13,411 nucleotides of DNA, taken from the UHGV virus genome UHGV-0394570; one strand, given 5' to 3'. Positions 265 through 13,307 of the stretch are shown one piece after another. The DNA is from a virus. Under the pieces are notes generated by a model. It had not been told where the DNA came from, did not search any database, and saw only the letters and a program-made list of their open reading frames with translations. A program made the translations under genes and the position numbers. The stretch's first letter is position 1. The number at the start of each line of letters is the position of its first letter.

Positions 265-2253
265 TTACGCAGATGCCGGGCTGTTCACTTCCACTGTCAG
301 CGTGTCAATCCACGTTTCATACGTGGCTGTATTCGACGCATCCGTCAGAATAAGCGTGTTTTCCTGTCCTTCATATTTAAAACAGGACAGCTGTGTGGTC
401 GGGGCTTTTACCGTATCCACGTATGGCGTCACCGTGTTCTGGCCTCCTCCCGGATATACCAGCTCCAGTGTGTGCCATTCACTGTTCAGCGTACCGTATC
501 CCGCAACACGCGTCTGCGCTGCACCATTGTGCATCAGACTGAGTTTGCCATCCGTTTCTGTCTGCAGATAGAACGCCACCAGGAACGGATGGGTACCGTC
601 CGCCTTATTGGCAAATTCCACACCTTCCGGGATATCGTTTTCCTTCAGCTGCAGATACATCGCCAGGGCTATCTGTTTTCCGTTCGCACTCCCTGGTATT
701 TTAAAGCGACAGGTGATTTTGCCGCCGTTTTTCAGCAGTTCCGCCGCATTTGCCACTTCACGGGTCAGCTTCAGGTTCATTGCTTCATCCTGGCTCAGTT
801 TCAGCGCCCGCCCGGAAGTACTGCTTTCATCCTGTACCACTTCCGCCTTACCTTCGCTCAGCGTCCAGCCCTGTTCGGCATAAGCACCTTCACTTTCTGC
901 ACCGCTGTACAGGGTGGTAACGTTACTCTTCGGTTTTGCCGGTTCCGGATAGTTTTCCGTTATATCTCCACCGGCAAGGAACGGTCCGTTACGCCCTGCA
1001 TGGGTCAGGATTGCGGTGGCTATACGGTCCGGCAGGATGCCGCGACGGGCCCAGGAACTGAAATGCATGGCGCGTGTCGGGTTCGTCCAGTTACCCGCCG
1101 TGCGTGATGCTGCACCGTAATAATTTGCTTCGGGCACATCCGGATCTTCTGCCGGGTTATTGGTCGGAACATTCGCACCGGTCTCATCCTTCATGAGTTC
1201 GACAAAATGCACATTCGGCTCACTGTTTTTACGGTACGCGCCATAAACCAGGCTGTATTGTGTCGGGTACTGCTGCTTCCACCAGAAGGTGGTATCACCA
1301 CATACCCACGGTACGCGGGCCGCATCACCACCCAGACACTGACCGGCATATGCCGCCAGATCGGTACGGAACTGCTTCACCATGGCCGTAAACAACGCCG
1401 GATGCCCCGTGTAACCTGAAGACATACAGTCACCCTCGCCCTGCATCCAGTACACGGCCAGCAGGACGTTTTTCGCGTTCTTTTCAAGGGCGGCCTTCGT
1501 GCGGGCAATTAAATCCATGTACAACGGTTTACCCACACCCCAGCGGGAGGAATCCGCTGTTGCCCCCGTCTCCGGGTTATAGGTACCCTCATCACGATCG
1601 GTAAACGCAGAGCCGCCACGACTGCACGGCACAATCAGGATCCCCGCATTAACCGGAATATAGGGCAGAAGACGTTTGGCAATATGCAGGCCGTGCCCGA
1701 CACAACCATACTGACCACGGGAAAGGTCCGCGTTGGGGTGATTTTTGGCACTCATGTCTTCAACGTCATGGAGACAGTGATCGGCCTCAATCACATCGTT
1801 GTATTTACAGGCAGCACCACCCGGTCGGACCACACTGCGGCGGGCCAGCTGCTTAATGCGTGGATCGGGACGGTCGTAGCTGTCAGGCAGGGGCATACCT
1901 TCGCCGGTTGCCATATTGTTGGACTGACCTGCGGTGACCAGCACATAGTAATATTCAGGCTCACGGGTCGGCTCGCTCACCACCGCACCGCCTTCCTCCG
2001 GTGTCACCACGACAGGCGTGGTGACATCCCCTTCTGCGGCAATCGCCTGCATCAGGGTATAAGGGGTAATGGCGACCGGGCTGCCAAACGGCTGCCAGCC
2101 TTCCTTCAGTTTTTGNNNNNNNNNNNNNNNNNNNNNNNNNNNNNNNNNNNNNNNNNNNNNNNNNNNNNNNNNNNNNNNNNNNNNNNNNNNNNNNNNNNNN
2201 NNNNNNNNNNNNNNNATCAACTTGCTGAATTGTGAGGTATTTAAAAATTTCAC
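265..2253 (-). CDS. nanS-p: NanS-p-like prophage sialate O-acetylesterase (SASA/SGNH-type esterase), interrupted by assembly gap
   Basis: Long minus-strand ORF with esterase signature TAGQSNNMATGEG (GQSN serine motif) and a C-terminal beta-rich domain. Lies downstream of the tRNA triad as in Stx-phage late regions. The 5' end is uncertain: track start is GTG at 2253 and codons 13-46 fall in the N run. Confidence 0.75.
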   Translation of the reverse strand: MKFLNTSQFSKLXXXXXXXXXXXXXXXXXXXXXXXXXXXXXXXXXXQKLKEGWQPFGSPVAITPYTLMQAIAAEGDVTTPVVVTPEEGGAVVSEPTREPEYYYVLVTAGQSNNMATGEGMPLPDSYDRPDPRIKQLARRSVVRPGGAACKYNDVIEADHCLHDVEDMSAKNHPNADLSRGQYGCVGHGLHIAKRLLPYIPVNAGILIVPCSRGGSAFTDRDEGTYNPETGATADSSRWGVGKPLYMDLIARTKAALEKNAKNVLLAVYWMQGEGDCMSSGYTGHPALFTAMVKQFRTDLAAYAGQCLGGDAARVPWVCGDTTFWWKQQYPTQYSLVYGAYRKNSEPNVHFVELMKDETGANVPTNNPAEDPDVPEANYYGAASRTAGNWTNPTRAMHFSSWARRGILPDRIATAILTHAGRNGPFLAGGDITENYPEPAKPKSNVTTLYSGAESEGAYAEQGWTLSEGKAEVVQDESSTSGRALKLSQDEAMNLKLTREVANAAELLKNGGKITCRFKIPGSANGKQIALAMYLQLKENDIPEGVEFANKADGTHPFLVAFYLQTETDGKLSLMHNGAAQTRVAGYGTLNSEWHTLELVYPGGGQNTVTPYVDTVKAPTTQLSCFKYEGQENTLILTDASNTATYETWIDTLTVEVNSPASA
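2116..2215. other. Assembly gap (100 N)
   Basis: Run of exactly 100 n characters. True length and reading-frame continuity across it are unknown. Confidence 0.99.
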
Positions 2254-2432
2254 CAGCTAACTGATACCAGGCTAACCGTCTGGTGTTTTCTTTTTCAGCA
2301 ACGGGAAAACAACAACCACAACACCAGCCACCAGCATCCCATCTGCCAGCACTGACATTATCCGGCTGCTGAAGTCCACCATCACGACAAGAAACAGCAG
2401 AACTACCACAATGGCCAGGCGCAGTTTTACCG

Positions 2433-2864
2433 TCACAGGTGATTCTCCAGACGAAGGCCCAGAACACCGGCTATCTCTTCCAGCACCTTGCGCTCTTCCG
2501 GCTCAATTTCGCCATCTGATTCCGCAATGGCCACCGCCACATCCAGTACATCTTCCGCTTCTCGCATATCGTGTTTCACGTCCTCGATCTCACGTAACGC
2601 TGCACGACGACCTATTTTGAAGTTGGTGTCCAGCTGACCAGTGATGGTTGCGCTAATCGCATTAATTTCTGACGTAAACGCTGACAATGCAGGTTGGTTA
2701 CGCAGTACCTGTTCGATCTTCGCTTTCTCGGAAGCCTCACACTCACCATCTGCATAAGCCACCAGGTATGCAGCGTTAATCACCGCCTGGGCCAGATCGC
2801 GTTTTTCAAACTTTTTAATTTCCGCTGCCGCTCTGCGGGTTTTCTTTTTGAAGATTCCAAACAT
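2433..2864 (-). CDS. TerB-like (tellurite-resistance TerB domain) protein, 143 aa
   Basis: ATG at 2864-2862 with SD AAAGGAACG upstream; the track start at 2936 is a non-ATG extension. Two ADG...E motifs typical of TerB domains (AYADGECEASEKAKI and AESDGEIEPEERKVLEEIA). Confidence 0.65.
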   Translation of the reverse strand: MFGIFKKKTRRAAAEIKKFEKRDLAQAVINAAYLVAYADGECEASEKAKIEQVLRNQPALSAFTSEINAISATITGQLDTNFKIGRRAALREIEDVKHDMREAEDVLDVAVAIAESDGEIEPEERKVLEEIAGVLGLRLENHL

Positions 2865-2994
2865 CGTGACGTTCCTTTGGGTGGGTGAGCCAACGCCCGG
2901 GAGCGATCTGCCCACAGAGAAAGTCACACTGACCACTCCGTAAGCTCACCCCCGAAAGGCTCTGTGGTTGATATGCGCCGGGCGTGGCGCGGAT

Positions 2995-3019
2995 ACAAAA
3001 AAGGCCGCCAATAGCGACC
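2995..3019 (-). terminator. Intrinsic terminator after the 68-aa ORF
   Basis: Minus-strand RNA GGUCGC-UAUU-GGCGGCC (one G-U pair) followed by UUUUUUGUAUCC. Core shares 15 identical nt (GATACAAAAAAGGCC, 2992-3006) with the terminator at 3588-3613. Confidence 0.55.
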
Positions 3020-3053
3020 TCAGTTACGGGATTATTCTGGGGTTAAACGACTG

Positions 3054-3260
3054 TTACTCCCAGACAAAATCATCACTTCCTGTTCGATGCGAGCCATAGT
3101 GAACCTCGTACTTATCTCCCATCTTTCTTGCTTCCGTTTCTGCGTCTTCCTCTGTCGCAAAAACCCCAACAAGATGCCAGGGCGAGCTTCTTACCACAGC
3201 CCAACCTTTAACCCATCCTTTGTTGTCCTTATCTTCCATTAACACTTCAGAAACAAACAT
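3054..3260 (-). CDS. Hypothetical small acidic protein, 68 aa
   Basis: ATG at 3260 preceded by AAGGAG with 6-nt spacing; stop TAA 3054-3056. Translation MFVSEVLMEDKDNKGWVKGWAVVRSSPWHLVGVFATEEDAETEARKMGDKYEVHYGSHRTGSDDFVWE. No family recognised. Confidence 0.5.
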   Translation of the reverse strand: MFVSEVLMEDKDNKGWVKGWAVVRSSPWHLVGVFATEEDAETEARKMGDKYEVHYGSHRTGSDDFVWE

Positions 3261-3312
3261 ATTTATCTCCTTGTGGGTACCCGGAGATATTTTATGATTG
3301 CTCCCGGTCAGA

Positions 3313-3537
3313 TCAATAAAGTGGCTTCAATTTTGCCTTAATGATCAAATCAGGGTGATTGACGGAATCGTACACCACCTCAATATTTTCATCCGTGGCG
3401 TCGATAAGATATTCTTTTACATAAGGACCTGTTGATTTTCCATGAAATACATCTTCAACAAGTACACTCTCCCCCTGAACAACACGAAAACTAACTTCTG
3501 TTTCGAACGGACCAATCGTCACCATCAGTTTTTTCAC
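3313..3537 (-). CDS. Hypothetical small acidic protein, 74 aa (GTG start) or 70 aa (ATG at 3525)
   Basis: AGGAGG 4 nt upstream of GTG at 3537; in-frame ATG at 3525. Translation MKKLMVTIGPFETEVSFRVVQGESVLVEDVFHGKSTGPYVKEYLIDATDENIEVVYDSVNHPDLIIKAKLKPLY. No family recognised. Confidence 0.5.
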   Translation of the reverse strand: MKKLMVTIGPFETEVSFRVVQGESVLVEDVFHGKSTGPYVKEYLIDATDENIEVVYDSVNHPDLIIKAKLKPLY

Positions 3538-3587
3538 ATAGCCTCCTGATAAGCACTCGATTTATTAGTTAATGGTGTAACGCAGAT

Positions 3588-3613
3588 ACAAAAAAGGCCC
3601 GCAAAAGCGAGCC
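3588..3613 (-). terminator. Intrinsic terminator directly downstream of the tRNA cluster
   Basis: Minus-strand RNA GGCUCGC-UUUU-GCGGGCC (7-bp stem, one G-U) followed by UUUUUUGUAUCUGCG. Near-repeat of the 2995-3019 terminator. Confidence 0.6.
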
Positions 3614-3626
3614 AGGTAAATAAATA

Positions 3627-3703
3627 TGGCGCGTTGTACTGGATTCGAACCAGTGACCGATTGCTTAGAAGGCAATTGCTCTGTCCGGCTGAGCTAACAA
3701 CGC
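3627..3703 (-). tRNA. argO: tRNA-Arg (anticodon UCU, reads AGA/AGG)
   Basis: Minus-strand sequence GCGTTGTTAGCTCAGCCGGACAGAGCAATTGCCTTCTAAGCAATCGGTCACTGGTTCGAATCCAGTACAACGCGCCA: 7-bp acceptor stem, anticodon loop CTTCTAA, T-loop TTCGAAT, encoded CCA. Third gene of an ileZ-argN-argO-like triad. Confidence 0.85.
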
Positions 3704-3716
3704 AGGGTACGGATAA

Positions 3717-3793
3717 TGGACCGCCATCGAGGACTCGAACCCCGCGCAACCAGCTTCGAAGGCTGGCGCTCTATCCCGATGAGCTAATGGCGG
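3717..3793 (-). tRNA. argN: tRNA-Arg-like (anticodon read as UCG); unusual C1-G72 and U73
   Basis: Minus-strand sequence CCGCCATTAGCTCATCGGGATAGAGCGCCAGCCTTCGAAGCTGGTTGCGCGGGGTTCGAGTCCTCGATGGCGGTCCA: perfect 5-bp anticodon stem CCAGC/GCTGG, loop CTTCGAA, T-loop TTCGAGT, encoded CCA. Isotype by anticodon only. Confidence 0.7.
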
Positions 3794-3800
3794 TATGTGA

Positions 3801-3876
3801 TGGTGGCCCTTGCTGGATTTGAACCAGCGACCTGGCGATTATGAGTCGCTCGCTCTCACCACTGAGCTAAAGGGCC
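3801..3876 (-). tRNA. ileZ: tRNA with CAU anticodon; closely resembles E. coli tRNA-Ile2 (lysidine, reads AUA)
   Basis: Minus-strand sequence GGCCCTTTAGCTCAGTGGTGAGAGCGAGCGACTCATAATCGCCAGGTCGCTGGTTCAAATCCAGCAAGGGCCACCA: anticodon loop CTCATAA, encoded CCA. Strong resemblance to recalled ileX-type tRNA-Ile2 rather than elongator or initiator Met. Confidence 0.85.
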
Positions 3877-3916
3877 GGGCGCAGAATAATAACGGTGCGT
3901 CACTGATTCTGCAATA

Positions 3917-4975
3917 TCATCCGTTCTGACTGATAAAATCCTGAACTTCCCTGACTGTCTGCTCAAAACGTCCGGTCTCCAGCTCAACACCAATCGCCCG
4001 ACGTCCCAGTGACAGCGCCGCTTTTACCGTTGAACCTGACCCCATGAAAAAATCTGCAATCAGGTCACCCGGACGACTGCTCGCACTGATTATCTGCCGC
4101 AGCATTTCTGCCGGTTTTTCGCACGGATGTTTCCCGGGATAGTACTGCACCGGTTTATGCGTCCACACATCCGTGTACGGCACCTGCGCCGTCACGCCAA
4201 AATACCGCCGCAGATGCTTATATTCACTCTGCAGTTCCGCATACTGCCGGTTCAGTGAAGTATACGTCTCCAGCAGCTGGTGGTGGGGCTTTTCCAGTTC
4301 ACCCCGCTGATGCTTCTCTTCTGCCACCCGGGCAAACAGCGCCTGTAATTTCAGATAATCACTTTCGTCCGGTAGCTGCCACTGACTGGCACTGAACCAG
4401 TGCGACACCATGTTTTTCTTTCCTGTGGCATCCACTATCTGTTTTGCCGTTATCCCCAGGGCAGCGCGCGCATCACGAAAGTAAGCAATCAGCGGGGCCA
4501 TCACATGCTGTTTCAGTGCCCTGCCCTTCGCCTCATACCCGGCATCTTTCGGACGATACGGCCCCTGATAATGTTCCGCGAACAGAATGCGCTCTGTGGC
4601 GGGGAAATACGCCCTCAGGCTTTCCTTGTTGCACCCGTTCCAGCGTCCGGACGGCTTCGCCCAGATGATATGGTTCAGTACGTTAAACCGCTCACGCATC
4701 ATGATTTCGGTGTCAGATGCCAGGCGATGCCCACAGAACAGGTAAAGGCTTCCGGCAGGTTTTAACACCCGCCAGAACTGCGCCAGACACTGGTCCAGCC
4801 ACTTCAGGTAATCATCGTCGCCCTTCCACTGGTTATCCCAGCCCTCAGGCTTCACTTTAAAGTACGGCGGGTCCGTGACTATCAGGTCAACAGAATTTTC
4901 GGGTAACGACCGGATAAATTCCAGGCAGTCGGCGTTGATTAACTCACAACTGGATATTTTTACAGTATTAAGCAT
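3917..4975 (-). CDS. DNA methyltransferase, beta-class (N6-adenine or N4-cytosine), 352 aa
   Basis: ATG at 4975; stop TGA 3917-3919. DPPY motif near the N-terminus (LIVTDPPYF) and AdoMet-binding FxGxG motif near the C-terminus (DFFMGSGST). No adjacent restriction endonuclease gene visible. Confidence 0.85.
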   Translation of the reverse strand: MLNTVKISSCELINADCLEFIRSLPENSVDLIVTDPPYFKVKPEGWDNQWKGDDDYLKWLDQCLAQFWRVLKPAGSLYLFCGHRLASDTEIMMRERFNVLNHIIWAKPSGRWNGCNKESLRAYFPATERILFAEHYQGPYRPKDAGYEAKGRALKQHVMAPLIAYFRDARAALGITAKQIVDATGKKNMVSHWFSASQWQLPDESDYLKLQALFARVAEEKHQRGELEKPHHQLLETYTSLNRQYAELQSEYKHLRRYFGVTAQVPYTDVWTHKPVQYYPGKHPCEKPAEMLRQIISASSRPGDLIADFFMGSGSTVKAALSLGRRAIGVELETGRFEQTVREVQDFISQNG

Positions 4976-5111
4976 GGATCATTAAGCCTGTCTCTGATAG
5001 GCTCATTCTGCTTTTGCGCAAAGCAGTGGGCCTGAGGTTTGCTTGTGATCCGGACGCATGAGCAGATGGCTGGTGAGTGCCCCTAACACCCACCAGCCGC
5101 CCATTTACCAC

Positions 5112-5139
5112 AAATAAAAAAGCCTTCAGGACTGAAGGC
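5112..5139 (-). terminator. Intrinsic terminator overlapping the stop of the 65-aa ORF, upstream of the methylase gene
   Basis: Minus-strand RNA GCCUUCA-GUCC-UGAAGGC (7-bp perfect stem) followed by UUUUUUAUUUG. Confidence 0.65.
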
Positions 5140-5323
5140 GTCTGTAACAACCAAACTGATAGTCTGCCAGACCCGCCATAACCAGCTGGGTCAGTATTAA
5201 CTGGCAGCGTTCGCGTGAAAGGTAAGTATTCTGCGCAATCTCCCCGACTGTCGCCGGGTCGGTAACGCTTAATTCATTAAACACCACTCTGGCGGTTTCT
5301 GTCATATCCTGCTGTTTTAGCAT
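5126..5323 (-). CDS. Hypothetical small protein, 65 aa, between tR'-like terminator and methylase
   Basis: ATG at 5323 with weak SD (AAAGGGA); stop 5126-5128 sits inside a terminator hairpin. Translation MLKQQDMTETARVVFNELSVTDPATVGEIAQNTYLSRERCQLILTQLVMAGLADYQFGCYRRLQS; possible small helix-turn-helix fold (guess). Confidence 0.4.
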   Translation of the reverse strand: MLKQQDMTETARVVFNELSVTDPATVGEIAQNTYLSRERCQLILTQLVMAGLADYQFGCYRRLQS

Positions 5324-5445
5324 GCCTTTTTTCCCTTTTCCGGTTAACGTGACATACCAATAACTCTTGTCGAAAAAGCCAGCAAGCTGAAAGAACGGTA
5401 TTAATAACCACCAGCGAATTTATTGCGCTGCTGTATATTACGGAC

Positions 5446-5468
5446 ACAAAAAAACCACCTTCCGGTGG
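5446..5468 (-). terminator. tR'-like intrinsic terminator downstream of the Q-like gene
   Basis: Minus-strand RNA CCACC-GGAA-GGUGG followed by UUUUUUUGUGUCC, about 100 nt downstream of the Q-like stop. Confidence 0.7.
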
Positions 5469-5530
5469 CTTCCTTGTGCGAAAAAAACTTGCGTTTCGCC
5501 TCGCGATACAGCTTTGCGAAGCTTACAGGA

Positions 5531-5560
5531 ATTCAAGCTGTTTCTGCGTAAAAAAGCAAG
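5531..5560 (-). promoter_or_regulatory. Candidate late promoter (PR'-like)
   Basis: On minus strand TTGCTT, 17-nt spacer, TTGAAT, located between the Q-like stop and the tR'-like terminator. Sequence match is weak; position is the main argument. Confidence 0.25.
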
Positions 5561-5566
5561 CTTTTT

Positions 5567-6109
5567 TTATCGAAATGAATCATGCATAGGTACATAAAGC
5601 ATGTGTTCAGCCACGGCTAACCAACCTGCAATACGTTTCTCACATGTGCTGAAGCACCATTCCGGGTGAGTACGATTTAAACATTCTGCCATTTTTCTCT
5701 TACTCATTCCCCGTCCTTCGTACCTTTGCCGGAGAATATTGATTAGCCCGGGATATTCCCCAAGCACCTCACTGATGACGCGATCAATAATCAACGCCTC
5801 TGTGTCTGTACAATGTGACAACCAGCTCTTCTGCTTCCCTCTGGTCATATCCCGAAAAAATGCCTCAAGTTCCGGTTTATCCAGCCCGGATTTCTTCATT
5901 CTGCGTAAAACCTCATTAACTGCTGTTTTTGTCAGCTTCTTCGAAACCAGTAACCGGTTAAACATATTTCCGGATTTACCCCCACCTATATACGACCACC
6001 GCCCCCACATCCGTAATTTCCCCTGGATCCAGACTGCTTCCAGCGTGTTCAGGCGTAAATGTTCGCCGCTTTTGCCTGTAATTTCCGGATATATCATATT
6101 TACGCTCAC
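5567..6109 (-). CDS. Putative late-gene antiterminator (Q-like)
   Basis: Basic 176-180 aa protein placed between rusA and a promoter/terminator pair, the canonical Q position in lambdoid phages. Track start is GTG at 6109 overlapping the rusA stop (GTGA); alternative ATG at 6097. Family assignment rests on position and recalled resemblance to Q21-type proteins, not on a verified motif. Confidence 0.55.
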   Translation of the reverse strand: MSVNMIYPEITGKSGEHLRLNTLEAVWIQGKLRMWGRWSYIGGGKSGNMFNRLLVSKKLTKTAVNEVLRRMKKSGLDKPELEAFFRDMTRGKQKSWLSHCTDTEALIIDRVISEVLGEYPGLINILRQRYEGRGMSKRKMAECLNRTHPEWCFSTCEKRIAGWLAVAEHMLYVPMHDSFR

Positions 6110-6465
6110 TCACTCTCAATTTTGTAAATCTTCACACCCAGCCGTCCACCAGATACTGGCTGACCACGTACAATATTGATTTCATCAAACTGCTCGTCAT
6201 CAATGAGCACTCCCGCATGCGTCAGCGCATCCAGCGGTGCTTTCAGAATATTGTCCAGGTCGCGACGGCGCTTATCCGGTGGCTCTGCAATCACCTTTAT
6301 CGCCAGCCTTCCGGACAGGCTTAATTTCAGCCGCTGCTGGCGAACAATAAGCGCCACTGCCCGGCGATAACGCTCCCCGGCTTTTGATACAAAATATGTG
6401 CTGCCACGGCGTCGCCAGTAAGTGTTCACTGTCGGCGGATAAGGTAAAACCAAATCTATGAGCAT
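6106..6465 (-). CDS. rusA: RusA-type Holliday junction resolvase, 119 aa
   Basis: ATG at 6465 with SD AAGAGGTGA. Translation MLIDLVLPYPPTVNTYWRRRGSTYFVSKAGERYRRAVALIVRQQ...DLDNILKAPLDALTHAGVLIDDEQ matches the recalled RusA family (conserved acidic residues), in typical nin-region position before Q. Confidence 0.9.
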   Translation of the reverse strand: MLIDLVLPYPPTVNTYWRRRGSTYFVSKAGERYRRAVALIVRQQRLKLSLSGRLAIKVIAEPPDKRRRDLDNILKAPLDALTHAGVLIDDEQFDEINIVRGQPVSGGRLGVKIYKIESE

Positions 6466-6477
6466 CAGTCACCTCTT

Positions 6478-7560
6478 TTACCCGAGCACGCCAGTTGCAA
6501 AGGCGTGATCAAGAAAACGAAAAATTAACTCAACCTGGGAGCCGTACTTTTTCTCAAACTCCAGCGGGTCAGCATGAAGTTCGTTGTGATGTTCCCGGCA
6601 CAACGGTAGCGTGAAAATATCGTGGGCCTTTGTTCCCATTCCCCCCTGACCATGACCAATCAGGTGATGCGGATCGTCAGCTGGCTTACCACAACACGCA
6701 CACGGCTGTGTCTTTACCCAGCGCGTGTATTTCTCATTAACCCAACGGCGACGTTTAGGCCGCCTCATGAACGATTCAGGAGACTCCGGATCAACGGCGA
6801 TACTGACAACCGTTTTTTTCTGTGGTGGATTTTGTTGCTGGTGGACGTGAAGTGGCAGCGCAATATTTTTTGTGCGCTGCTTCAGTATGCTGATGGCTGT
6901 CTGTTCTCCCGGTACGATGTCACTCTCACGGTATACGGAGCGGATTTTTTCCGCTGGTAATCCCAGCGAACGACGCGCTACTGCCTCAGGTAGTGCATCC
7001 ACCACCTGATTGCAGGCCGCCCACCAGGATAATTCGGCCAGCGATAACTCCCTCTCCTGCGTACCGCTTATTGCGTGACGGATGACGTCAATCATCCAGG
7101 CAACCAGATTCTGTTGAGCAAGTAGCTCCAGTGAATCAGATGTCTGCTCCCGCAGGTGGTTGTCGCAGTGCCAGCACAACACCATCGCGCCGGTACCGTA
7201 ACGGTGAATGACGGTTTCGCTGTGATGATAATCGCCGTGTGGCCACTGGCAGGATTTCACGTGACGTAATAACCAGTCAGACAGTGCACCAGCGCCACCC
7301 GCAGCACGGATCACCCGCTCATCGATGAAAAATGGCAGTAATGATTTATCTTCCGCCAGCGGCTGGCGAACGGCAGGTACAACCCCGGACGGCAGAGCAC
7401 GCATGCTTTTCGGTTCCGGCTCCACCAGCACCCTGCCGCAATGAAAAACCGGCAGTGATTCACGACCGGGCGTAAGGACCACCAGCCCGAGTTCCGGAAC
7501 CAGAACAGGTCGAAGTAATACCCGCACATTACCTCCAGACGCGCTGACGGTAGCAGGCAT
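6478..7560 (-). CDS. DUF968-like prophage protein with C-terminal HNH/zinc-finger-like motif
   Basis: Track ORF starts at GTG 7581; first ATG at 7560. C-terminal Cys/His cluster CACCGKPADDPHHLIGHG...LCREHHNELH. Start overlaps the upstream ORF by at least 32 nt. Confidence 0.65.
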   Translation of the reverse strand: MPATVSASGGNVRVLLRPVLVPELGLVVLTPGRESLPVFHCGRVLVEPEPKSMRALPSGVVPAVRQPLAEDKSLLPFFIDERVIRAAGGAGALSDWLLRHVKSCQWPHGDYHHSETVIHRYGTGAMVLCWHCDNHLREQTSDSLELLAQQNLVAWMIDVIRHAISGTQERELSLAELSWWAACNQVVDALPEAVARRSLGLPAEKIRSVYRESDIVPGEQTAISILKQRTKNIALPLHVHQQQNPPQKKTVVSIAVDPESPESFMRRPKRRRWVNEKYTRWVKTQPCACCGKPADDPHHLIGHGQGGMGTKAHDIFTLPLCREHHNELHADPLEFEKKYGSQVELIFRFLDHAFATGVLG

Positions 7561-7801
7561 GTGTCCGTGGCAGATGTGCACGAACAGGAAGATATACAGA
7601 AACGGTCCAGGTCAGACGGTCAGCGTTCAGGCTCCGCTCCACACGGACACCGCGACGCCAATACGCCTGTTGAAGCATATCGGCCTCATCGGTCGAACAG
7701 AACAGATAATGAAACCAGCCATACTGAGGCACACGGAAACGCCGCCCCTGCTTAGTAGTCGGGGCGGCTTCGGAATTGTGGGATTTTATATGTTGCGCCA
7801 T
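7529..7801 (-). CDS. Hypothetical protein, about 90 aa
   Basis: ATG at 7801 with SD GGAGAAG; the track ORF begins at TTG 7864. Translation MAQHIKSHNSEAAPTTKQGRRFRVPQYGWFHYLFCSTDEADMLQQAYWRRG... No family recognised. Confidence 0.4.
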   Translation of the reverse strand: MAQHIKSHNSEAAPTTKQGRRFRVPQYGWFHYLFCSTDEADMLQQAYWRRGVRVERSLNADRLTWTVSVYLPVRAHLPRTHACYRQRVWR

Positions 7802-7880
7802 CGGCTTCTCCGGTGACGCAGCAGGTGCCAGTTGTTCAGGCTGACGGCGCGAATTGTAAGGCAATACGCCGGAATGTACA

Positions 7881-7906
7881 AACAGAAAACCCGTCAGTAA
7901 GACGGG
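7881..7906 (-). terminator. Intrinsic terminator after the YgiW/BOF gene
   Basis: Minus-strand RNA CCCGUC-UUACU-GACGGG followed by UUUUCUGUUUGU, 16 nt after the stop at 7922. Confidence 0.6.
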
Positions 7907-7921
7907 GATAACCAGAACCGG

Positions 7922-8269
7922 TTACTTTAATAATTTCAGCGTTTTTACATCCAGTTCAACACTGTTCAGGTCTTTATCAAGTTCACCCTCGATTATTACC
8001 TTATCTTCCGGAGACACATTCTGCCCGGCCCATACACTTTCATCGATATCCGTGACAATGGTTCCGCTACTGTCGCGAAACTCATAACGATCATCACCCA
8101 ATTTTTTAACGATGTGCCCTTCAAGGATAACCCATGCCTCGTCCTTCTGTTCTTTTGCCTGCACTACTGTTGTTGAACGCTCTGCTTCAGACCCCAGAAA
8201 ACCTCCCTGTTGTGCAAAAACGCCAAAAGACACGCAGGAAAAAAGGGCTGCGATTAATACTTTTTTCAT
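7922..8269 (-). CDS. YgiW/YdeI (BOF, bacterial OB-fold) family periplasmic protein, 115 aa with signal peptide
   Basis: ATG at 8269 with SD AGAGGA; track start 8350 is an upstream extension. Signal peptide MKKVLIAALFSCVSFGVFAQQ followed by an OB-fold-like body. Low-GC gene with its own terminator. Confidence 0.75.
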   Translation of the reverse strand: MKKVLIAALFSCVSFGVFAQQGGFLGSEAERSTTVVQAKEQKDEAWVILEGHIVKKLGDDRYEFRDSSGTIVTDIDESVWAGQNVSPEDKVIIEGELDKDLNSVELDVKTLKLLK

Positions 8270-8386
8270 TATCGTCCTCTTCAAGAAATTAACATGAACA
8301 CTTGCATTGCAGCATATAAAATGCGGGTGCGTTGAGGATGCCTGACACATCAGAGGTGGCGAGGGATTTCTCCCTCGCCTGGTCTC

Positions 8387-8542
8387 TTACTTCTCAGATT
8401 CGTAGTCTACGAAGACAGCGACCTCCGTCTGGCCGGTTCGGATTCGTACCTCGCAGAGGTCTTTCCTCGTTACCAGTGCCGTCACTATGACGGTTAAACA
8501 GATGACAATCAGGGCGATTAACATCGCCTTTTGCTGCTTCAT
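8387..8542 (-). CDS. hok: Hok/Gef-family type I toxin, 51 aa
   Basis: MKQQKAMLIALIVICLTVIVTALVTRKDLCEVRIRTGQTEVAVFVDYESEK: N-terminal TM helix and conserved Cys pattern, near-identical to recalled HokD/RelF. The track ORF (8599) is an in-frame 19-codon upstream extension from another ATG. Confidence 0.85.
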   Translation of the reverse strand: MKQQKAMLIALIVICLTVIVTALVTRKDLCEVRIRTGQTEVAVFVDYESEK

Positions 8543-8787
8543 AGCCTGCTTCTCCTTGCCTTTCGGCACGTAAGAGGCTAACCTACATGTGCAAAGCATG
8601 AAATTGGCCTCAGATTAATGTTAAGCGTCTTGCCGGACGCGTAATGTTAACTGGGGCTTTTCTCTGTCTGCCTTACGGTGGCATGCCCGAGGCAGACAGC
8701 CTCAAGCACCCGCAGCAATTCTACTTAACTCTCGCTTTACCGCAAACCGTTTTTACCCGATATGGGAATCCCCATATCGCAATGAAA

Positions 8788-8892
8788 TCAGTTTCCCATC
8801 CGATCCATCAAAAACACAACCAGGCAGTAAACGCCCACAACAGAAATAACGGCCAGCGCGCCTTCCATTGCCAGTGAAAGATCATCCGACAT
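8788..8892 (-). CDS. Unannotated hydrophobic micro-ORF, 34 aa (single predicted TM)
   Basis: ATG at 8892-8890 preceded by AAAGGAGGG (4-5 nt spacing); stop TGA 8788-8790. Translation MSDDLSLAMEGALAVISVVGVYCLVVFLMDRMGN. Below the ORF-track length cutoff. Confidence 0.4.
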   Translation of the reverse strand: MSDDLSLAMEGALAVISVVGVYCLVVFLMDRMGN

Positions 8893-8927
8893 ATTCCCTC
8901 CTTTGGTGTGAATCCCGGCGAACGTTT

Positions 8928-9011
8928 TTACTCCCACCGACAAATAACATATACTAAAAAAGCGATAGCCATAGCAACGCCTGTAATTGCAAAGGCTTCA
9001 GGCCAGTTCAT
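8928..9011 (-). CDS. Unannotated hydrophobic micro-ORF, 27 aa, translationally coupled to the upstream 101-aa ORF
   Basis: ATG at 9011-9009 overlaps the TGA stop (9008-9010) of the upstream ORF (ATGA overlap); stop TAA 8928-8930. Translation MNWPEAFAITGVAMAIAFLVYVICRWE. Confidence 0.4.
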   Translation of the reverse strand: MNWPEAFAITGVAMAIAFLVYVICRWE

Positions 9012-9313
9012 CGTAAAACATCCTCCACACTTATCAGTCCATTTCGCTTCAGATAGTCCATCGCCTTATCCGGTAATTTGCAGTCCAACTTCGCTTTCTT
9101 CAGATGCCTGGCTAACTGCTTTACCAGCATGGTTAACTCGTAGACCGAACGTTGATACTCCACTGGTTTGTATTCATGCAATTTACCAACTGGCTCTGCT
9201 TCCAGCAATGCCAGTGCAATCCGTGCCAGTTCCATTTGTTCGCCACGGGTAAGTCCGTTATCAAGCGGATTTTTAATGAATAATTCGATACGTTCTTTGG
9301 TAATAGAATTCAT
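9008..9313 (-). CDS. Hypothetical protein, 101 aa
   Basis: ATG at 9313 with SD AAGGTG, 1 nt after the TAG stop of the upstream 63-aa ORF. Translation MNSITKERIELFIKNPLDNGLTRGEQMELARIALALLEAEPVGKLHEYKPVEYQRSVYELTMLVKQLARHLKKAKLDCKLPDKAMDYLKRNGLISVEDVLR. No family recognised. Confidence 0.55.
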   Translation of the reverse strand: MNSITKERIELFIKNPLDNGLTRGEQMELARIALALLEAEPVGKLHEYKPVEYQRSVYELTMLVKQLARHLKKAKLDCKLPDKAMDYLKRNGLISVEDVLR

Positions 9314-9314
9314 G

Positions 9315-9506
9315 CTATTTCACCTTAATCTCAACATTTCGCAGCTTTAACTCTATTGGTAGGTCTGACTTTCCTGTTAATGCTAATGCGAGATTTTCAG
9401 GAGTAATGAGAGCAGTTATTGTTTTCCCCATCGCCAGACGAATAATCATTCGTATTTCGCGATCGTCACATGCTCCTGGTCGAACAATTGATATTTGTCC
9501 GTTCAT
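9315..9506 (-). CDS. Hypothetical protein, 63 aa
   Basis: ATG at 9506 preceded by a strong SD AAAGGAGAG; the track ORF (GTG at 9563) is an upstream extension. Translation MNGQISIVRPGACDDREIRMIIRLAMGKTITALITPENLALALTGKSDLPIELKLRNVEIKVK. Confidence 0.5.
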   Translation of the reverse strand: MNGQISIVRPGACDDREIRMIIRLAMGKTITALITPENLALALTGKSDLPIELKLRNVEIKVK

Positions 9507-9563
9507 CTCACTCTCCTTTGATGCGAATGCCAGCGGTAATTGAAGCCTGATAGCTAATTTCAC

Positions 9564-9986
9564 TCACAGTACCGCCTCCTGAAAATTACCCTGATAGAAA
9601 GCCAGTACACGCCGCATAGCTTCGCTCTTCCGGCACTCGCGACAGATTATGTTCTGTCGTCTGTTGTAACGACGTATTTCTCCGTCTGGTAATGACCAGA
9701 TAAGCTCAGGATCAACCACAACCGGTTTCTTCACCTTTGCCCTTGATAGTTTTTTGCGGGCGTTTTGCCATTCTTTACGCGCCTGCTCAGACGGGAATAA
9801 TCCGTAGCCTGAATTGTAAACATCACCACTGGCAACCAATTCTCTGGCGAGAGTGCTTATGTAATACCTTGATGCACCGGTTTTAGCCTCCAGAGCCCGT
9901 AACGTCTCGCGACCGCTCAGACGTACAAGTTCAACAACCTGCCCTTTAATTTTTTCCCGCTCTTCTGGTGTAAATACTTTTTCCAT
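9564..9986 (-). CDS. Hypothetical protein, 140 aa, with probable N-terminal winged-HTH-like segment
   Basis: ATG at 9986 with SD GGAGG; track start is TTG 10001. Translation MEKVFTPEEREKIKGQVVELVRLSGRETLRALEAKTGASRYYISTLARELVASGDVYNSGYG...; basic C-terminal half. Confidence 0.55.
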   Translation of the reverse strand: MEKVFTPEEREKIKGQVVELVRLSGRETLRALEAKTGASRYYISTLARELVASGDVYNSGYGLFPSEQARKEWQNARKKLSRAKVKKPVVVDPELIWSLPDGEIRRYNRRQNIICRECRKSEAMRRVLAFYQGNFQEAVL

Positions 9987-10001
9987 AGGTGCCTCCGGCA
10001 A

Positions 10002-10727
10002 TCACTTTTCCGACACAATACGACTGGAGGAATCGAAAATCTGTCGAACAATATCCCGGTGCGTGTTCAGCTCCCGCAGCGCAGCACAGACGCGTTCCCA
10101 CTTCTGGACATCACTTTTCGCCCGGCGCAGCTCGCGGTTAGCCACATGCAGCGATGGTAGAATCAGGTCATCTGCTTTCATTTCGCTGAGCGATGGCTGT
10201 AACTTCACAATGTCTTCCACGATTTCTGTTTTCATTTCCTCCTGTGCCGTCGTTTCCTGGACTGGTAACGCAACACCTGCTGGCTGAGGAAAGGCTTTAC
10301 CCTCCGTTTCCGCTACGGATGCAGCTTCCGGCTCTGCCGGTAAATCAGCGCCCGGTATGCAGTAACGAAATTTACCGCCCTGATTCACGCGAATCAGACG
10401 CCCTTTGCTGATTGCCATCGCCAGCGATGAATTCGCCCGGCGGGAGGTAATTCCGAACATCAGTGCCAGTTCATCCGCCGTTTGTGGGCCATGTTGTTCA
10501 ATCGCCTCTGTCAGCATTTGCGCAGTCACTTTCGGTACCGGTGACACCGATTCACTTTCACCAGCCTGAGTCAGCCACCACATCGACCCCTTGTTATCCG
10601 CTTCACCGCGGCGCTTCAGTTTCCACAGTTCGTTGACCGCCTCTTCACGGCTGATTCCAAGGCGCGATGCCACTACCTGTGAAGAGGCTTTTTTCAGTGC
10701 TTTCAGTGCGTCAAATACGGTTTCCAT
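10002..10727 (-). CDS. Hypothetical prophage protein (DUF1627-like by recollection) with two HTH-like repeats, 241 aa
   Basis: ATG at 10727 with SD GGAGGACG; track start TTG 10745. Two similar segments ([25 protein letters not shown] and [29 protein letters not shown]) followed by an acidic linker. Confidence 0.55.
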
Positions 10728-10748
10728 TAAAACGTCCTCCGACAAAAA

Positions 10749-11495
10749 TTACTTCACAACCCTCTGATTGCTGACATTTGGACGCCAGCTATCCCAGTTA
10801 AACGTCACCCATCGACCACCGTTCATGGTCATGCGGTCCATAATCCTCTCACCGAGAAGCGTACTCATTGCGGCATGATTCAGGTTTGTTAACATCCCGA
10901 CACTGCACAGTGATGCTGTCCGGCGATCAATTATCTGGTGCAATACCACCTGCTCGTTTTTCGTCTCACGCTGAACGCCTATTTCATCCAGGACCAGCAA
11001 ATCAACCCCGCAAAGCTCCTGTAAAAATTTTTCCCCGGACTGGCCGTTGTCGTAGCTGTCATGCAACACACTCATGACGTCAGACACGGTGACGATAATC
11101 ACGCTGCTCCCCTTCGCCATCAGCCGGTTGCCCATCGCCGCTGCAAGGTGATTTTTCCCGGTGCCGGTTTTACCGCTGAACACAAAATTCGTGCACCCGG
11201 TCATCAGTTCGTCAGCGATGGATTTTGCCTGGCTCAGCGCGTGTTTTTGCCCGTCGTTCTGCACCTGATAATTCGCAAACGAGCATTTGCTGTGCAGAGG
11301 CTGGATGCCCGAACGATTCAGGATTTTTTCCACCCGCAACTGGCGATTCTGGCGGTTAATCTCCTCGCTGCGTTTTCGTCCTTCAGCAAGCTGCCATTCC
11401 CGCCACTCCTCCACCGTCCGGTACGGTGGAACCGCCCCCTGTGGTGCAAGTCTGCGAATACGTTCAAGAACCCCGGCTGCCGCAATGTTTTTCAT
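10749..11495 (-). CDS. DnaC-like replicative helicase loader (AAA+ ATPase), 248 aa
   Basis: ATG at 11495. Walker A-like FSGKTGTGKNHLAAA and Walker B DLLVLDEIG, matching the recalled DnaC/IstB pattern; immediately downstream of the O-like initiator. Confidence 0.85.
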   Translation of the reverse strand: MKNIAAAGVLERIRRLAPQGAVPPYRTVEEWREWQLAEGRKRSEEINRQNRQLRVEKILNRSGIQPLHSKCSFANYQVQNDGQKHALSQAKSIADELMTGCTNFVFSGKTGTGKNHLAAAMGNRLMAKGSSVIIVTVSDVMSVLHDSYDNGQSGEKFLQELCGVDLLVLDEIGVQRETKNEQVVLHQIIDRRTASLCSVGMLTNLNHAAMSTLLGERIMDRMTMNGGRWVTFNWDSWRPNVSNQRVVK

Positions 11496-11501
11496 GCCAC
11501 G

Positions 11502-12464
11502 TCACCCCCTGAATCCAGGCGGTATTTCAGTGTCCGGTTCAGAAATGTGATTCACGCAACGATGCTCGGGCGAACGCCCCAGGCGGATAACCAGTTCATC
11601 CCATTTTTCCCGGAGTTTTGCCGGACTCATGATGTTTTTTACCCAGAACGAATCCCGCTGGACACGCCCAAACATTTCACAAATCTGCCGGTGACTACGT
11701 CCATCCAGCATCCGCATTGTGCGCACGTCATTGGCCCATGCTGTCCAGTTGGGTTCTTTCGGTCTCGTGATCTCGCCATCATCGCTGGCCGCCTGCTCGT
11801 AAAGACTCACGATTCGTCCCCAGATCCACTGTGCGCACACCAAATCTTCCTGACTTCCCCACTGGCGTTTTTTCGCACTGAACACAACCGCGTCAGGGTG
11901 TCGGGTTAAAAAATCCTGTTCAGCCGTCTGCGGGTCCGGTTGCGAAGCGTCCGGACAAGAAGATCTTTTCTCTGACGGATCAGGTTTTAATACTGACGGA
12001 TCGGGGTCAATCATCGCCCCCCTAATCGGCAGTTTTTTATCAACAGTTGATCCATCAAAATTTGACGGGTCAACCGTTGAGGGGTCAATATTTGACGGGT
12101 CAACTGTTAACGGGTCATTTTTTGCCGGGCTAATTTTTCTTTTCGGTTTATATGCCTCACGCGCCGCAGTTGCAGCTGCTTCGAGTTTTTCCACATTAAG
12201 CCGATAGATATTGCTTACATTACGCCCACCGACCTTACGCTCTTCCTTCGTCAGCCAGCCCTCTTTCGCCAGTTCTGCAATAGCAGATTTAACGGTGGAT
12301 TCACTTCTGGCACCGATCTGACGCCGGATAGTTTCAATGGCAGGCCATGACACGCCCTCGTCATTGCTGTAGTCTGCTAGACGGGCCATCACTGCCACCC
12401 GGGATAAGATCATGCCGGTGAAGGCGCATCCTTCCCAGACAAGACCATGAAGCTTGCTGCTCAT
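11502..12464 (-). CDS. Replication initiator (lambda O-like), with origin iterons embedded in the coding sequence
   Basis: Track start is GTG 12479; first ATG 12464. N-terminal HTH-like domain (GMILSRVAVMARLADYSNDEGVSWPAIETIRRQIGARSESTVKSAIAELAKEGWL) and a central low-complexity repeat (DPLTVDPSNIDPSTVDPSNFDGSTVD) encoded by the DNA iterons. Confidence 0.75.
   Translation of the reverse strand: MSSKLHGLVWEGCAFTGMILSRVAVMARLADYSNDEGVSWPAIETIRRQIGARSESTVKSAIAELAKEGWLTKEERKVGGRNVSNIYRLNVEKLEAAATAAREAYKPKRKISPAKNDPLTVDPSNIDPSTVDPSNFDGSTVDKKLPIRGAMIDPDPSVLKPDPSEKRSSCPDASQPDPQTAEQDFLTRHPDAVVFSAKKRQWGSQEDLVCAQWIWGRIVSLYEQAASDDGEITRPKEPNWTAWANDVRTMRMLDGRSHRQICEMFGRVQRDSFWVKNIMSPAKLREKWDELVIRLGRSPEHRCVNHISEPDTEIPPGFRG
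11973..12150. repeat. Phage replication origin: iteron array plus adjacent AT-rich tract
   Basis: Repeated GACGG(G/A)TCA cores: TGACGGATC at 11973-11981 and 11993-12001, TTGACGGGTCAAC at 12062-12074 and 12092-12104, plus partial GGGTCA copies. Adjacent AT-rich run CATTTTTTTGCCGGGCTAATTTTTCTTTTCGGTTTATAT at 12117-12150. Confidence 0.7.
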
Positions 12465-12486
12465 AAAACCCCCGAACACCGTGCTG

Positions 12487-12912
12487 TTAGTGCATCACCA
12501 CGGCATTTCCTGCCGGGCCGCCGCGATTCATCTGGTCATACAAAACAACCGCTGACGCAACAAAATCGTCGACATCCTTCACCAGCCGATCACGCCGTTC
12601 GACAATCTCCCGGTAATACTCAGAACTGTGACTGCGCATACGGGCCACCAGCAAAGGCGGCATCGCCTTTTCGATCGCTGGTAACAGAGCCTGAATTTTT
12701 TCAACAGCATCAGGGGTGTCTTTATCCAGCCAACGGAAAATTTTCTGGGTATTACGGGCCAGGGCTTCCGGATGACTGTCGTCGTACAGTTCCGGGAACG
12801 TCATCCCCAGCTCGAAATACGCTTTGGTAATTTTCGCAGCCGGTACTTTTTCGCCGTCCGGATGCGCCCAGGCATTCATCGCCATGCGGATGTGCTCATG
12901 CTTGATTTTCAT
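12487..12912 (-). CDS. YdaT-like (CII-position) prophage protein, 141 aa
   Basis: ATG at 12912 overlapping the upstream stop (ATGA). N-terminus MKIKHEHI and second position in the Cro-like operon resemble the Rac-type ydaS-ydaT arrangement (recollection). Confidence 0.6.
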   Translation of the reverse strand: MKIKHEHIRMAMNAWAHPDGEKVPAAKITKAYFELGMTFPELYDDSHPEALARNTQKIFRWLDKDTPDAVEKIQALLPAIEKAMPPLLVARMRSHSSEYYREIVERRDRLVKDVDDFVASAVVLYDQMNRGGPAGNAVVMH

Positions 12913-13211
12913 GAATCAACTCCATCAGATAAGCATGTACTACAATCACCTTCAGCATGAACTGCATGCGTTTGCCCCAAACGAATTCCGTTCGCATACT
13001 CAGGCCAAATAAGCTCCCAATCATGGGGTCGTAGCTCCGCCCTACTTACTTGGCCTTCTGTCGCAGATTCGATCATAAGGGCGCGGGTTGGAGATATAGC
13101 TGCTCGTCCAGACGCCATTTGCGATAAGTAAGATGGCGATACACCAAGTCTGGCCGCGAATTTCTTAGCGTCACCAACCTTCAATGATTTAATAAACTCT
13201 TTTAATGTCAT
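12909..13211 (-). CDS. Cro-like HTH regulator (YdaS family), 100 aa
   Basis: ATG at 13211 with SD GAGGAAGG. HTH segment FAARLGVSPSYLSQMASGRAAISPTRALMIESATEG. Divergent from a plus-strand repressor gene across an operator-rich intergenic region. Confidence 0.7.
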   Translation of the reverse strand: MTLKEFIKSLKVGDAKKFAARLGVSPSYLSQMASGRAAISPTRALMIESATEGQVSRAELRPHDWELIWPEYANGIRLGQTHAVHAEGDCSTCLSDGVDS

Positions 13212-13307
13212 ACCTTCCTCGGTTTAGTGTTTTTTTTGAGTTTAGTGTTTAATAAACCATTAAGTCAAGTATTTGCTTGTTTAGTGATTACTAAAGATAA
13301 TTACCGC
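13212..13307. promoter_or_regulatory. Genetic-switch intergenic region: operator repeats and divergent promoters
   Basis: Three direct copies of TTTAGTG(T/A)T (13223-13231, 13241-13249, 13280-13288) and a near-palindrome TTTAGTgattACTAAA (13280-13295). Plus-strand promoter TTGCTT (13273-13278), 17 nt, GATAAT (13296-13301) ending 6 nt before the ATG at 13308. Minus-strand candidate TTGACT -35. Confidence 0.6.

Follow-up and report, generated by a model that had tools for sequence, protein, structure and literature searches.

What does a toxin-free lambdoid phage carry at the place where Shiga toxin (Stx) phages carry stxAB? This question is raised by the virus genome UHGV-0394570, of which a stretch of 13,411 nucleotides (hereafter the window) was analyzed. 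The window is the late region of a stx-negative lambdoid prophage, and its genes are transcribed on the minus strand in the order Q-like antiterminator, methylase, three tRNA genes, terminator T1, OrfA, OrfB, terminator T2, TerB/TciA-like gene, DUF3927/TciB-like gene and esterase (Table 1). An earlier note on this DNA had described OrfA and OrfB as a two-gene cargo cassette in the stx slot, bracketed by near-identical terminators. In this study, we propose that OrfA, OrfB and T2 together (about 593 bp) form a self-contained, horizontally mobile moron at the PR' accessory-gene site. We consider this reading, with the origin and the lytic expression proposed below, to be rather likely.

The site on the 3' side of the Q-antiterminated PR' promoter has been described as the 'moron insertion site', and it holds stx2 in Sp5 (Tree et al. 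2014, PMC4104026). The cassette occupies the corresponding position, downstream of Q/PR' and the tRNA genes and upstream of nanS-p and the lysis genes. The site was compared in its empty, OrfAB and stx2 states. In phage Evi (LR597642) the site is empty: tRNA-argO is followed by a lone terminator, ggctcgcttttgcgggccttttttgtatc, then by TGCGCCACGCCCGGCGCATATCAACC and TerB, so that the T1 stem is fused to the DNA that stands behind T2 in the window. Relative to this empty site, the cassette adds 593 bp. With a 161-nt probe across the empty junction, a contiguous match was obtained in 755 of the 5426 complete E. coli genomes; Sakai prophage Sp12 and a second prophage of O26:H11 strain 11368 are among these sites. 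The filled site, counted at a coverage threshold of at least 80%, was found in 93 E. coli genomes (O26, O145, O157 and bovine isolates), and the gene order in O26 11368 and SMN013SH2 is that of the window. In a Salmonella prophage (locus L015), argO, T1, OrfAB (93% amino acid identity) and T2 are present, and an unrelated flank leading to the holin gene begins immediately after GGCCTTTTTTGTATCC. In the 29 loci that contain the T2 core, the end of the core is followed by one of three different right-flank families. These facts indicate that the cassette was inserted into a site that is much more often empty, and that on the right it stops where the T2 core ends. The expectation that an alignment would reveal a discrete, swappable cassette was thus borne out by the empty sites and by the switch of the right flank in Salmonella.

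The relation to the stx2 state is closer on the left side than on the right. In Stx2 phages, the same tRNA genes and terminator are followed by TTTTTTATATCTGCGCC, then by gggtctgg and stx2A. The left junctions are TATCTGCGCC for stx2 and GTATCTGCG for the cassette. Since the Stx2 phages diverge from the shared tRNA/terminator sequence there, the stx2 and OrfAB cargoes start within about 2-6 nt of one another. On the right side, Stx2 phages have about 860 bp of non-coding DNA and then nanS-p, whereas the window has TerB/TciB; the right junction has no counterpart in Stx2 phages, because they lack both TerB/TciB and the T2 core. The left junction of the cassette is thus close to that of stx2, whereas the right side differs from that of Stx2 phages. 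The slot, moreover, was said to hold two genes and in fact holds four accessory genes. In the stx-negative phages Evi and JLK-2012, the resident cargo of the slot consists of TerB/TciA and TciB, which directly follow the tRNA genes. In a phage collection of 50,697 records, none had the cassette at this slot; OrfB homologues were found in only 7 records, none of which was an Stx phage.

The two terminators that bracket the cassette share an identical core. The 15-mer GATACAAAAAAGGCC occurs only twice in the window, at 2992-3006 and at 3585-3599, exactly as had been reported, while the chance expectation is 0.01. The likeness of T1 and T2 extends imperfectly over about 45 nt, covering the hairpin stems and about 11 nt past the core. 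The bracket is, however, asymmetrical. The T1 terminator (fold of -13.8 kcal/mol, z -3.1) is present in the empty state (Evi), in the stx2 state (upstream of stx2A) and in the OrfAB state, which indicates that T1 belongs to the tRNA module as its intrinsic terminator. The fold of T2 is less distinctive (-12.7 kcal/mol, z -0.9). OrfB has a hairpin with a T-tract behind it in 17 of the 18 distinct loci with both genes, and the terminator in Xenorhabdus, GGTCGCAAATGCGGCC-Tn, is recognizably the same stem as T2, GGTCGCTATTGGCGGCC-Tn, with a conserved GGTCGC..GCGGCC-Tn. Judged from these sequences, T2 is the cassette's own terminator and travels with it.

Two further observations concern the junctions of late-region modules. 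A hairpin motif of 19 nt, CACCGGGAGGCACCCGGCA, is found repeatedly where modules of lambdoid late regions meet. It stands downstream of stx2B, in the interval from TciB to nanS-p and, in Salmonella, immediately after the T2 core (L002 9503-9521, L004 6863-6881, L015 5435-5453 and 6274-6292, L001 5164-5182, and 33 other loci). This motif, which may be a boundary or recombination sequence, is missing from the window, where it was probably lost in a run of N described below. Separately, the terminator upstream of OrfA in Xenorhabdus (aaggctgcgcatggcgtggccttttt, L018 about 5640-5670) is nearly identical to the intergenic terminator between TciB and nanS-p in O26 (ccggctgcgcatggcgtggcctttttttt, L002 about 9585-9615). 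Terminator sequences thus appear to be shared across genera and modules.

Both genes have the properties ascribed to them in the earlier note: they are small and encode acidic proteins, each is preceded by a strong Shine-Dalgarno sequence, and the GC content is lower than that of the flanks (39.1% for OrfA, 45.4% for OrfB and 42.6% for the cassette, against 50.5% for the window, 50.7% for TerB and 53.6% for the methylase). The GTG start of OrfA is supported by its homologues, all of which start with MKKL. In the filled-site genomes both genes are annotated as hypothetical (WP_000735807, WP_000498121/2). The proteins had been regarded as unassignable to any family, but both match PHROG profiles significantly (OrfA, PHROG 2571, E 1.9e-26; OrfB, PHROG 4280, E 2.3e-40); both families are annotated as of 'unknown function'. 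Both reading frames are intact in relatives: across genera, intact homologues were found with identities as low as about 31-36% in the case of OrfA and about 44-60% in that of OrfB. Homologues of OrfB with 59-72% identity are present in Xenorhabdus, Yersinia, Pseudocitrobacter, Scandinavium, phage mEp237 and many viral contigs, and the relatives of OrfB reach other proteobacterial classes. The motifs SPWHLxGV and YGSxRxGSDDF are invariant in OrfB. The ratio of non-synonymous to synonymous substitution rates (dN/dS) was 0.14-0.51 for OrfA and 0.11-0.49 for OrfB, and across the same comparisons OrfA had about twice as many non-synonymous changes as OrfB. These facts indicate that OrfA and OrfB are real genes on which purifying selection acts.

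The 3' end of OrfB (3054-3070) contains a G-tract of variable length. The tract is G3 in the window, where the protein ends in FVWE. The OrfB protein of O26 11368 has 69 residues and ends in WGE, and in SMN013SH2 and Salmonella the tract is G7 and the protein has 73 residues, ending in WGGVTVV. The variation alters only the tail past the conserved SDDFVW. The G3 in the window could be a sequencing error, given the gapped assembly.

The two genes are found together in other prophages as well. An OrfA homologue (31-45% identity) lies 52-75 nt upstream of OrfB, and such pairing, taken as an OrfA within 200 nt upstream, was found in 99 of 121 OrfB copies; these copies were not dereplicated and came mostly from Enterobacterales prophages and viral contigs. 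In almost every Enterobacterales or viral-contig locus that was examined, OrfA and OrfB were paired. The position of the pair varies. It follows Q and the tRNA genes in the window, lies in the interval between HicAB and the holin gene in Salmonella, and stands after Rz and before terminase in mEp237 and metagenomic phages. From these comparisons, the gene pair with its following terminator is seen to recur across Enterobacterales at several late-region positions. In two relatives, the neighborhood of the pair holds Acb2/Tad1-family and SIR2 genes. OrfB-like genes without OrfA occur in Pseudomonas, Azotobacter, Ralstonia, Bordetella and alphaproteobacteria. In Pseudomonas phage YMC11/02/R656 and in Superficieibacter, the upstream partner of OrfB was considered as a divergent OrfA, but the OrfA profile misses both genes, and they look unrelated.

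OrfA also has relatives of a different kind. Cys-rich OrfA paralogues of 74 residues (about 41% identity) overlap the stop codon of Rz by 4 nt in Stx1a, Stx2a and Stx2c phages and in H-19B; an example is found at 3001-3225 of locus L013 (Stx2a phage EH1846). No OrfB-like gene was found near these singletons.

The searches for function gave few clues. Pfam, NCBIfam and PADLOC searches with both proteins, and Pfam searches with the whole alignments, yielded nothing above threshold. The only recurring Pfam signal was DUF7336 for OrfB (E 0.005), which is below threshold. In PADLOC, OrfA had no match, and the best match of OrfB (Cas7c, 26 residues, E 0.014) was judged to be due to chance. Sequence-profile searches of the PDB with both proteins gave only E values of at least 0.49. 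An exhaustive HMMER search with OrfA against 1.84 billion representatives gave 11 matches. Apart from two C-terminally extended forms, it yielded nothing but a small family of proteins of 70-90 residues; two large proteins among the matches (an MBG-repeat and a leucine-rich repeat protein) were rejected as chance matches amplified by their repeats. The AlphaFold2 model of OrfA, built from an alignment of 41 sequences, is a six-strand beta-sandwich with a pLDDT of 91.4 and a pTM of 0.78. Since the model is confident and the fold is generic, OrfA is best called a putative small binding-type beta-sandwich with no assignable specificity. The model of OrfB (13 sequences) has a beta-beta-alpha-beta outline with a pLDDT of 57, and because of this value it was left out of the fold search. 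The fold searches of BFVD and the PDB gave nothing significant. No match to toxin subunits was found in Pfam, the PDB or the fold search beyond generic beta-sandwich matches. Inspection of the translations showed no evident signal peptide or hydrophobic segment in OrfA or OrfB. No papers were found on the RefSeq accessions, the PHROG identifiers or DUF7336. No homology or structure search, therefore, assigned a function to either protein, be it the anti-defence, exclusion or conversion role suggested in the earlier note or any other; neither of them was placed in a structural or housekeeping family, the outcome that would have told against a cargo role.

The spacer between OrfA and OrfB contains a candidate regulatory hairpin. 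Its 3' arm overlaps the Shine-Dalgarno sequence of OrfB, with which the upstream complement pairs, and in many relatives an extra CAU pairs with the AUG of OrfB. In 32 distinct leaders, pairing was found in 87% of cells, whereas slid controls gave 38-57%, and the observed values were reached by 0-2 of 500 shuffles. Five pairs of the hairpin show compensatory changes on both sides; for example, C-G is replaced by U-A in a Xenorhabdus leader (Shine-Dalgarno sequence GGAAA), and U-A by C-G where the Shine-Dalgarno sequence is GGAGG. The leader stem is also contained in the minimum-energy fold of the window sequence. These facts suggest that a conserved hairpin probably sequesters the Shine-Dalgarno sequence of OrfB and gates its translation. 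A hairpin that buries a translation-initiation region in the leader is also formed by the sdi structure of lambda S.

The OrfB leader differs from the sdi type in that its loop has a self-complementary octamer. The octamer stays self-complementary when it changes: GGGTACCC is replaced by GGTTAACC (in RNA, GGGUACCC by GGUUAACC) in six aligned leaders, which come from Yersinia, Scandinavium and viral contigs. In X. beddingii the octamer is GAGTATTC, with one G-T wobble. We know of no counterpart of this loop octamer. A zero-loop RNA hairpin formed by GGGTACCC itself was considered and rejected as sterically impossible, and the palindrome cannot pair within one RNA.

How would the cassette be expressed? 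A consensus scan found no sigma-70-like site between T1 and OrfA, although a weak or non-sigma-70 promoter would be beyond the reach of such a scan. The only promoter-like site noted was a 9-of-12 match, TTGATC-16-TAAAAT (3316 to 3289), upstream of OrfB, and the two promoter-like hits in the region are fewer than the 4.7 expected from shuffles. Given the lack of a detected promoter of its own and the position in the late operon, the cassette would most likely be transcribed by Q-modified RNA polymerase that reads through T1.

These results lead us to the following model. Recombination between phages would have moved the module, by a first crossover within the tRNA/T1 sequence that the phages share and a second one within the 15-nt microhomology GGCCTTTTTTGTATC common to T2 and T1. 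In lytic growth, the Q-modified polymerase would pass T1 and transcribe OrfAB, as it does stx2. In the repressed prophage, T1 and T2 would insulate OrfAB, and the leader hairpin would further limit the translation of OrfB by burying the Shine-Dalgarno sequence and, in many relatives, also the AUG. The products would be two small acidic cytoplasmic proteins, of which OrfA may be a fast-evolving beta-sandwich binding module and OrfB a more conserved small alpha/beta protein.

Comparison with known systems places the cassette among the morons, with some differences. Morons are known to differ from their surroundings in GC content and to carry a promoter and a terminator of their own (PMC3594210; Juhala et al. 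2000; Cumby 2012). The cassette shows three of the four features: it is extra DNA between genes that adjoin each other in related phages, its GC content differs, and it has its own factor-independent terminator. It has no detectable promoter of its own, and it consists of two genes, whereas classical lambdoid morons such as gene 15 of HK97 have one. Since the cassette is embedded in a late operon, it is probably expressed in lytic growth and not by the repressed prophage. stx2AB at the PR' moron site (933W/Sp5 type; Stx2a_WGPS8, AP012540) has the same position, downstream of Q, ileZ-argN-argO and the same terminator, and is likewise a two-gene cargo in a Q-dependent late transcript (PMC4104026). 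Unlike stx2AB, OrfAB has no similarity to Stx and no signal peptide, and on the right it is followed by its own terminator and then by TerB/TciB. TciA/TciB (TerB and DUF3927; JLK-2012, Evi and a P1-like annotation) is found at this slot in stx-negative lambdoid phages, and annotations call it a moron of uncertain function; its proteins are unrelated to OrfA and OrfB, and in the window it is the neighbor of the cassette. The repeat of the 15-nt core at both junctions resembles the PeSLs of T4-type phages, mobile regulatory cassettes whose repeated stem-loop terminators flank small ORFan genes and serve as the places where recombination shuffles modules (Arbiol et al. 2010, PMC2839356). PeSLs, however, include a strong early promoter and are present in many copies per genome, whereas the cassette has two terminator copies and no promoter element and lies in a temperate lambdoid phage.

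What OrfAB does can be proposed only tentatively. The proteins may act late in infection on a target of the host or of a competitor, in counter-defence or host modulation; we regard this as an uncertain suggestion that may well be wrong. A more specific version, in which OrfAB is an accessory pair for counter-defence or host takeover, OrfA recognizes the target, OrfB is the active partner, and a dimeric factor (possibly OrfA or OrfB itself) reads the leader loop (GGGUACCC/GGUUAACC), is more doubtful still. It is unlikely that OrfAB is a secreted toxin or a part of the virion.

Several points weigh against our reading. Classical morons come with a promoter of their own, and the consensus scan detected none for the cassette; the read-through by Q-modified polymerase is a step that we infer from the sequence. 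The thermodynamics of the leader hairpin are weak, with z between -2.05 (the value in the window) and +0.18, and its 3' arm would be conserved regardless of any hairpin, because it is the Shine-Dalgarno sequence. The model of OrfB is weak. At two loci that were inspected, solo OrfB-like genes have ordinary chromosomal genes as neighbors, and a prophage context is not evident; since OrfB-like genes stand alone in such contexts, a strictly phage-specific role is argued against. The suggestion of counter-defence, finally, draws on just the small size and acidity of the proteins, the faster evolution of OrfA and the cargo-rich neighborhoods.

Four other explanations were weighed. OrfAB might be a moron of lysogenic conversion or superinfection exclusion. 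A weak promoter of its own would then drive it in the repressed prophage, and it would protect the lysogen or alter its phenotype. The moron-like architecture with its lower GC content and own terminator would fit such a role, as would the promoter-like site upstream of OrfB and the annotation of the neighboring TerB/TciA and TciB as a host-phenotype moron. The interval from T1 to OrfA, however, has no promoter-like site, and the hits in the region stay under the shuffle expectation. Most known exclusion proteins work at the envelope, and in OrfA and OrfB alike no signal peptide or hydrophobic segment is obvious. We therefore consider this explanation to be unlikely. It would also be conceivable that OrfAB is an accessory of lysis or late morphogenesis, for example a modulator of lysis timing. 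The pair always adjoins the lysis cassette, standing before the holin gene in Salmonella, whereas in mEp237 and metagenomic phages it comes directly after Rz, and the overlap of the OrfA-like singletons with the Rz stop codon suggests translational coupling. Against this, no membrane segments are evident, and homologues of OrfB are found in contigs where neither a lysis cassette nor a prophage context is evident. The explanation is further weakened because the module is missing from most related phages (755 empty sites against 93 filled ones) and is thus dispensable. It seems to us less likely again than a conversion or exclusion function.

A toxin-antitoxin-like or abortive-infection pair, in which OrfB is a harmful effector held low by the sequestered ribosome-binding site and OrfA its neutralizer or sensor, would account for two small co-directional genes that are conserved as a pair. 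A hairpin that sequesters the Shine-Dalgarno sequence of the second gene is found in many toxic genes, related prophages have toxin-antitoxin systems nearby (HicAB, ParDE, RelE and hok/sok), and OrfA evolves about two times faster than OrfB. Both proteins are acidic, however, and neither matched a toxin-antitoxin or defence profile in Pfam, NCBIfam or PADLOC. The test for a type II system failed on this lack of a family match, on the gap of 52-75 nt between the genes, which do not overlap, and on the occurrence of each gene alone in some lineages: OrfB is widely found without OrfA, and OrfA-like genes without OrfB. Such a pair is improbable, and we rank it below the lysis accessory. The last explanation holds that OrfA and OrfB are chance open reading frames or decaying remnants in a spacer, and that the repeated terminator arose by local duplication. 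It is true that the frames are short, lie in an AT-richer stretch and have no Pfam family. The intact distant homologues, the dN/dS values of 0.1-0.5, the two PHROG matches and the confident model of OrfA (pLDDT 91) led us to reject this explanation, which has hardly any probability. The mobile moron at the PR' site thus remains the reading that we favor.

Table 1. Features of the cassette and of its neighborhood in the window.
Feature	Position	Strand	Remarks
T1	3585-3613	-	stem GGCTCGCTTTTGCGGGCC 3596-3613, then T6 and GTATC; core 3585-3599; left junction of the cassette
OrfA leader	3538-3584	-	AGGAGG at 3542-3547; nearly identical in Salmonella prophage L015
OrfA	3313-3537	-	74 aa; GTG start; AGGAGG 4 nt upstream; pI 4.97; PHROG 2571
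Candidate regulatory hairpin (OrfA-OrfB spacer)	3265-3288	-	AUCUCC-GGGUACCC-ACAA-GGAGAU; 5' arm 3283-3288, loop palindrome 3275-3282, linker ACAA, 3' arm 3265-3270
OrfB	3054-3260	-	68 aa; ATG start; AGGAG 7 nt upstream; pI 4.90; PHROG 4280
T2	2992-3021	-	stem 3001-3021; core 2992-3006; right junction directly 3' of core
Q-like antiterminator	5567-6109	-	DUF1133 1e-110, Phage_antitermQ
N6/N4 DNA methylase	3917-4975	-	profile match
tRNA array (CAT-anticodon ileZ-like, Arg-TCG argN-like, Arg-TCT argO-like)	3627-3876	-	ARAGORN and Rfam tRNA matches
TerB leader	2865-2991	-	resident cargo of the slot
TerB/TciA-like gene	2433-2864	-	Pfam TerB 1.8e-15; PHROG 632 / 1470 for the TerB and DUF3927 genes
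DUF3927/TciB-like gene	2272-2436	-	Pfam DUF3927 5.8e-22
SASA/DUF1737 NanS-p-type esterase	265 to about 2253	-	profile match

The flanks of the cassette were analyzed as well. The Q-like gene, the methylase, the tRNA genes and the esterase, from which a Stx-phage late region had been recognized, were all confirmed; the TerB/TciA and TciB genes that precede the esterase had gone unmentioned. The tRNA array, which shares about 95% identity with the ileZ-argN-argO region of Stx2 phages, is an upstream neighbor module outside the cassette. A run of N (a scaffold gap of about 100 bases from 2116 to about 2215) lies inside the esterase region and hides the 5' end of the esterase gene; the same gap removes part of the intergenic region between DUF3927 and the esterase. 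Since the gap removes the true start, the listed reading frame 265-2253 was read through the run of N. No complete E. coli genome among the 5426 covers at least 80% of the window from 2220 to 13411 in one place, the best coverage being 73-75% at 90-95% identity, so that the prophage is a mosaic for which that set has no representative.

Three further features of the window were noted. A terminator-like hairpin at 2263-2287 lies on the plus strand, opposite to the late operon, at the junction of DUF3927 and the esterase, and it matches no Rfam family. Convergent anti-sRNA genes of the AgvB/AsxR type have been described between the moron coding sequence and the conserved downstream open reading frame (Tree et al. 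2014, PMC4104026), and by analogy the hairpin may be the terminator of a small RNA of this type. An Rfam search over the whole window gave only the tRNAs and sok, and no known small RNA in the cassette. The sok antitoxin RNA (RF01794, 117 bits) at 8537-8711 on the minus strand marks a hok/sok type I toxin-antitoxin locus in the prophage early region. A 15-mer, ATTTGACGGGTCAAC, which contains an inverted repeat, occurs twice 30 bp apart, at 12060 and 12090 (12060-12104), and may be an operator or an origin iteron.

The sequence itself is not new, and elements of this kind are well known, since the DNA is present in 93 complete E. coli genomes and the proteins are already in PHROGs. What is added here is the nucleotide comparison of the three states, the assignment of T2 to the cassette with the core as the proposed crossover point, the pairing of the genes, the predicted fold of OrfA and the candidate leader of OrfB. 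The OrfA and OrfB families are widespread in prophages of enterohaemorrhagic-type E. coli, Salmonella, Xenorhabdus and their relatives. As an ordinary type of phage cargo, OrfA and OrfB are reasonable though unremarkable candidates for functional screening, and the hairpin at the ribosome-binding site of OrfB is a small and directly testable hypothesis. The interval from Q/PR' to the lysis genes is the location of the Shiga toxin genes in lambdoid phages, and the comparison of the empty, OrfAB and stx2AB states points to short terminator cores as crossover points there. The exchange of cargo at this site thus bears on the gain and loss of toxin genes.

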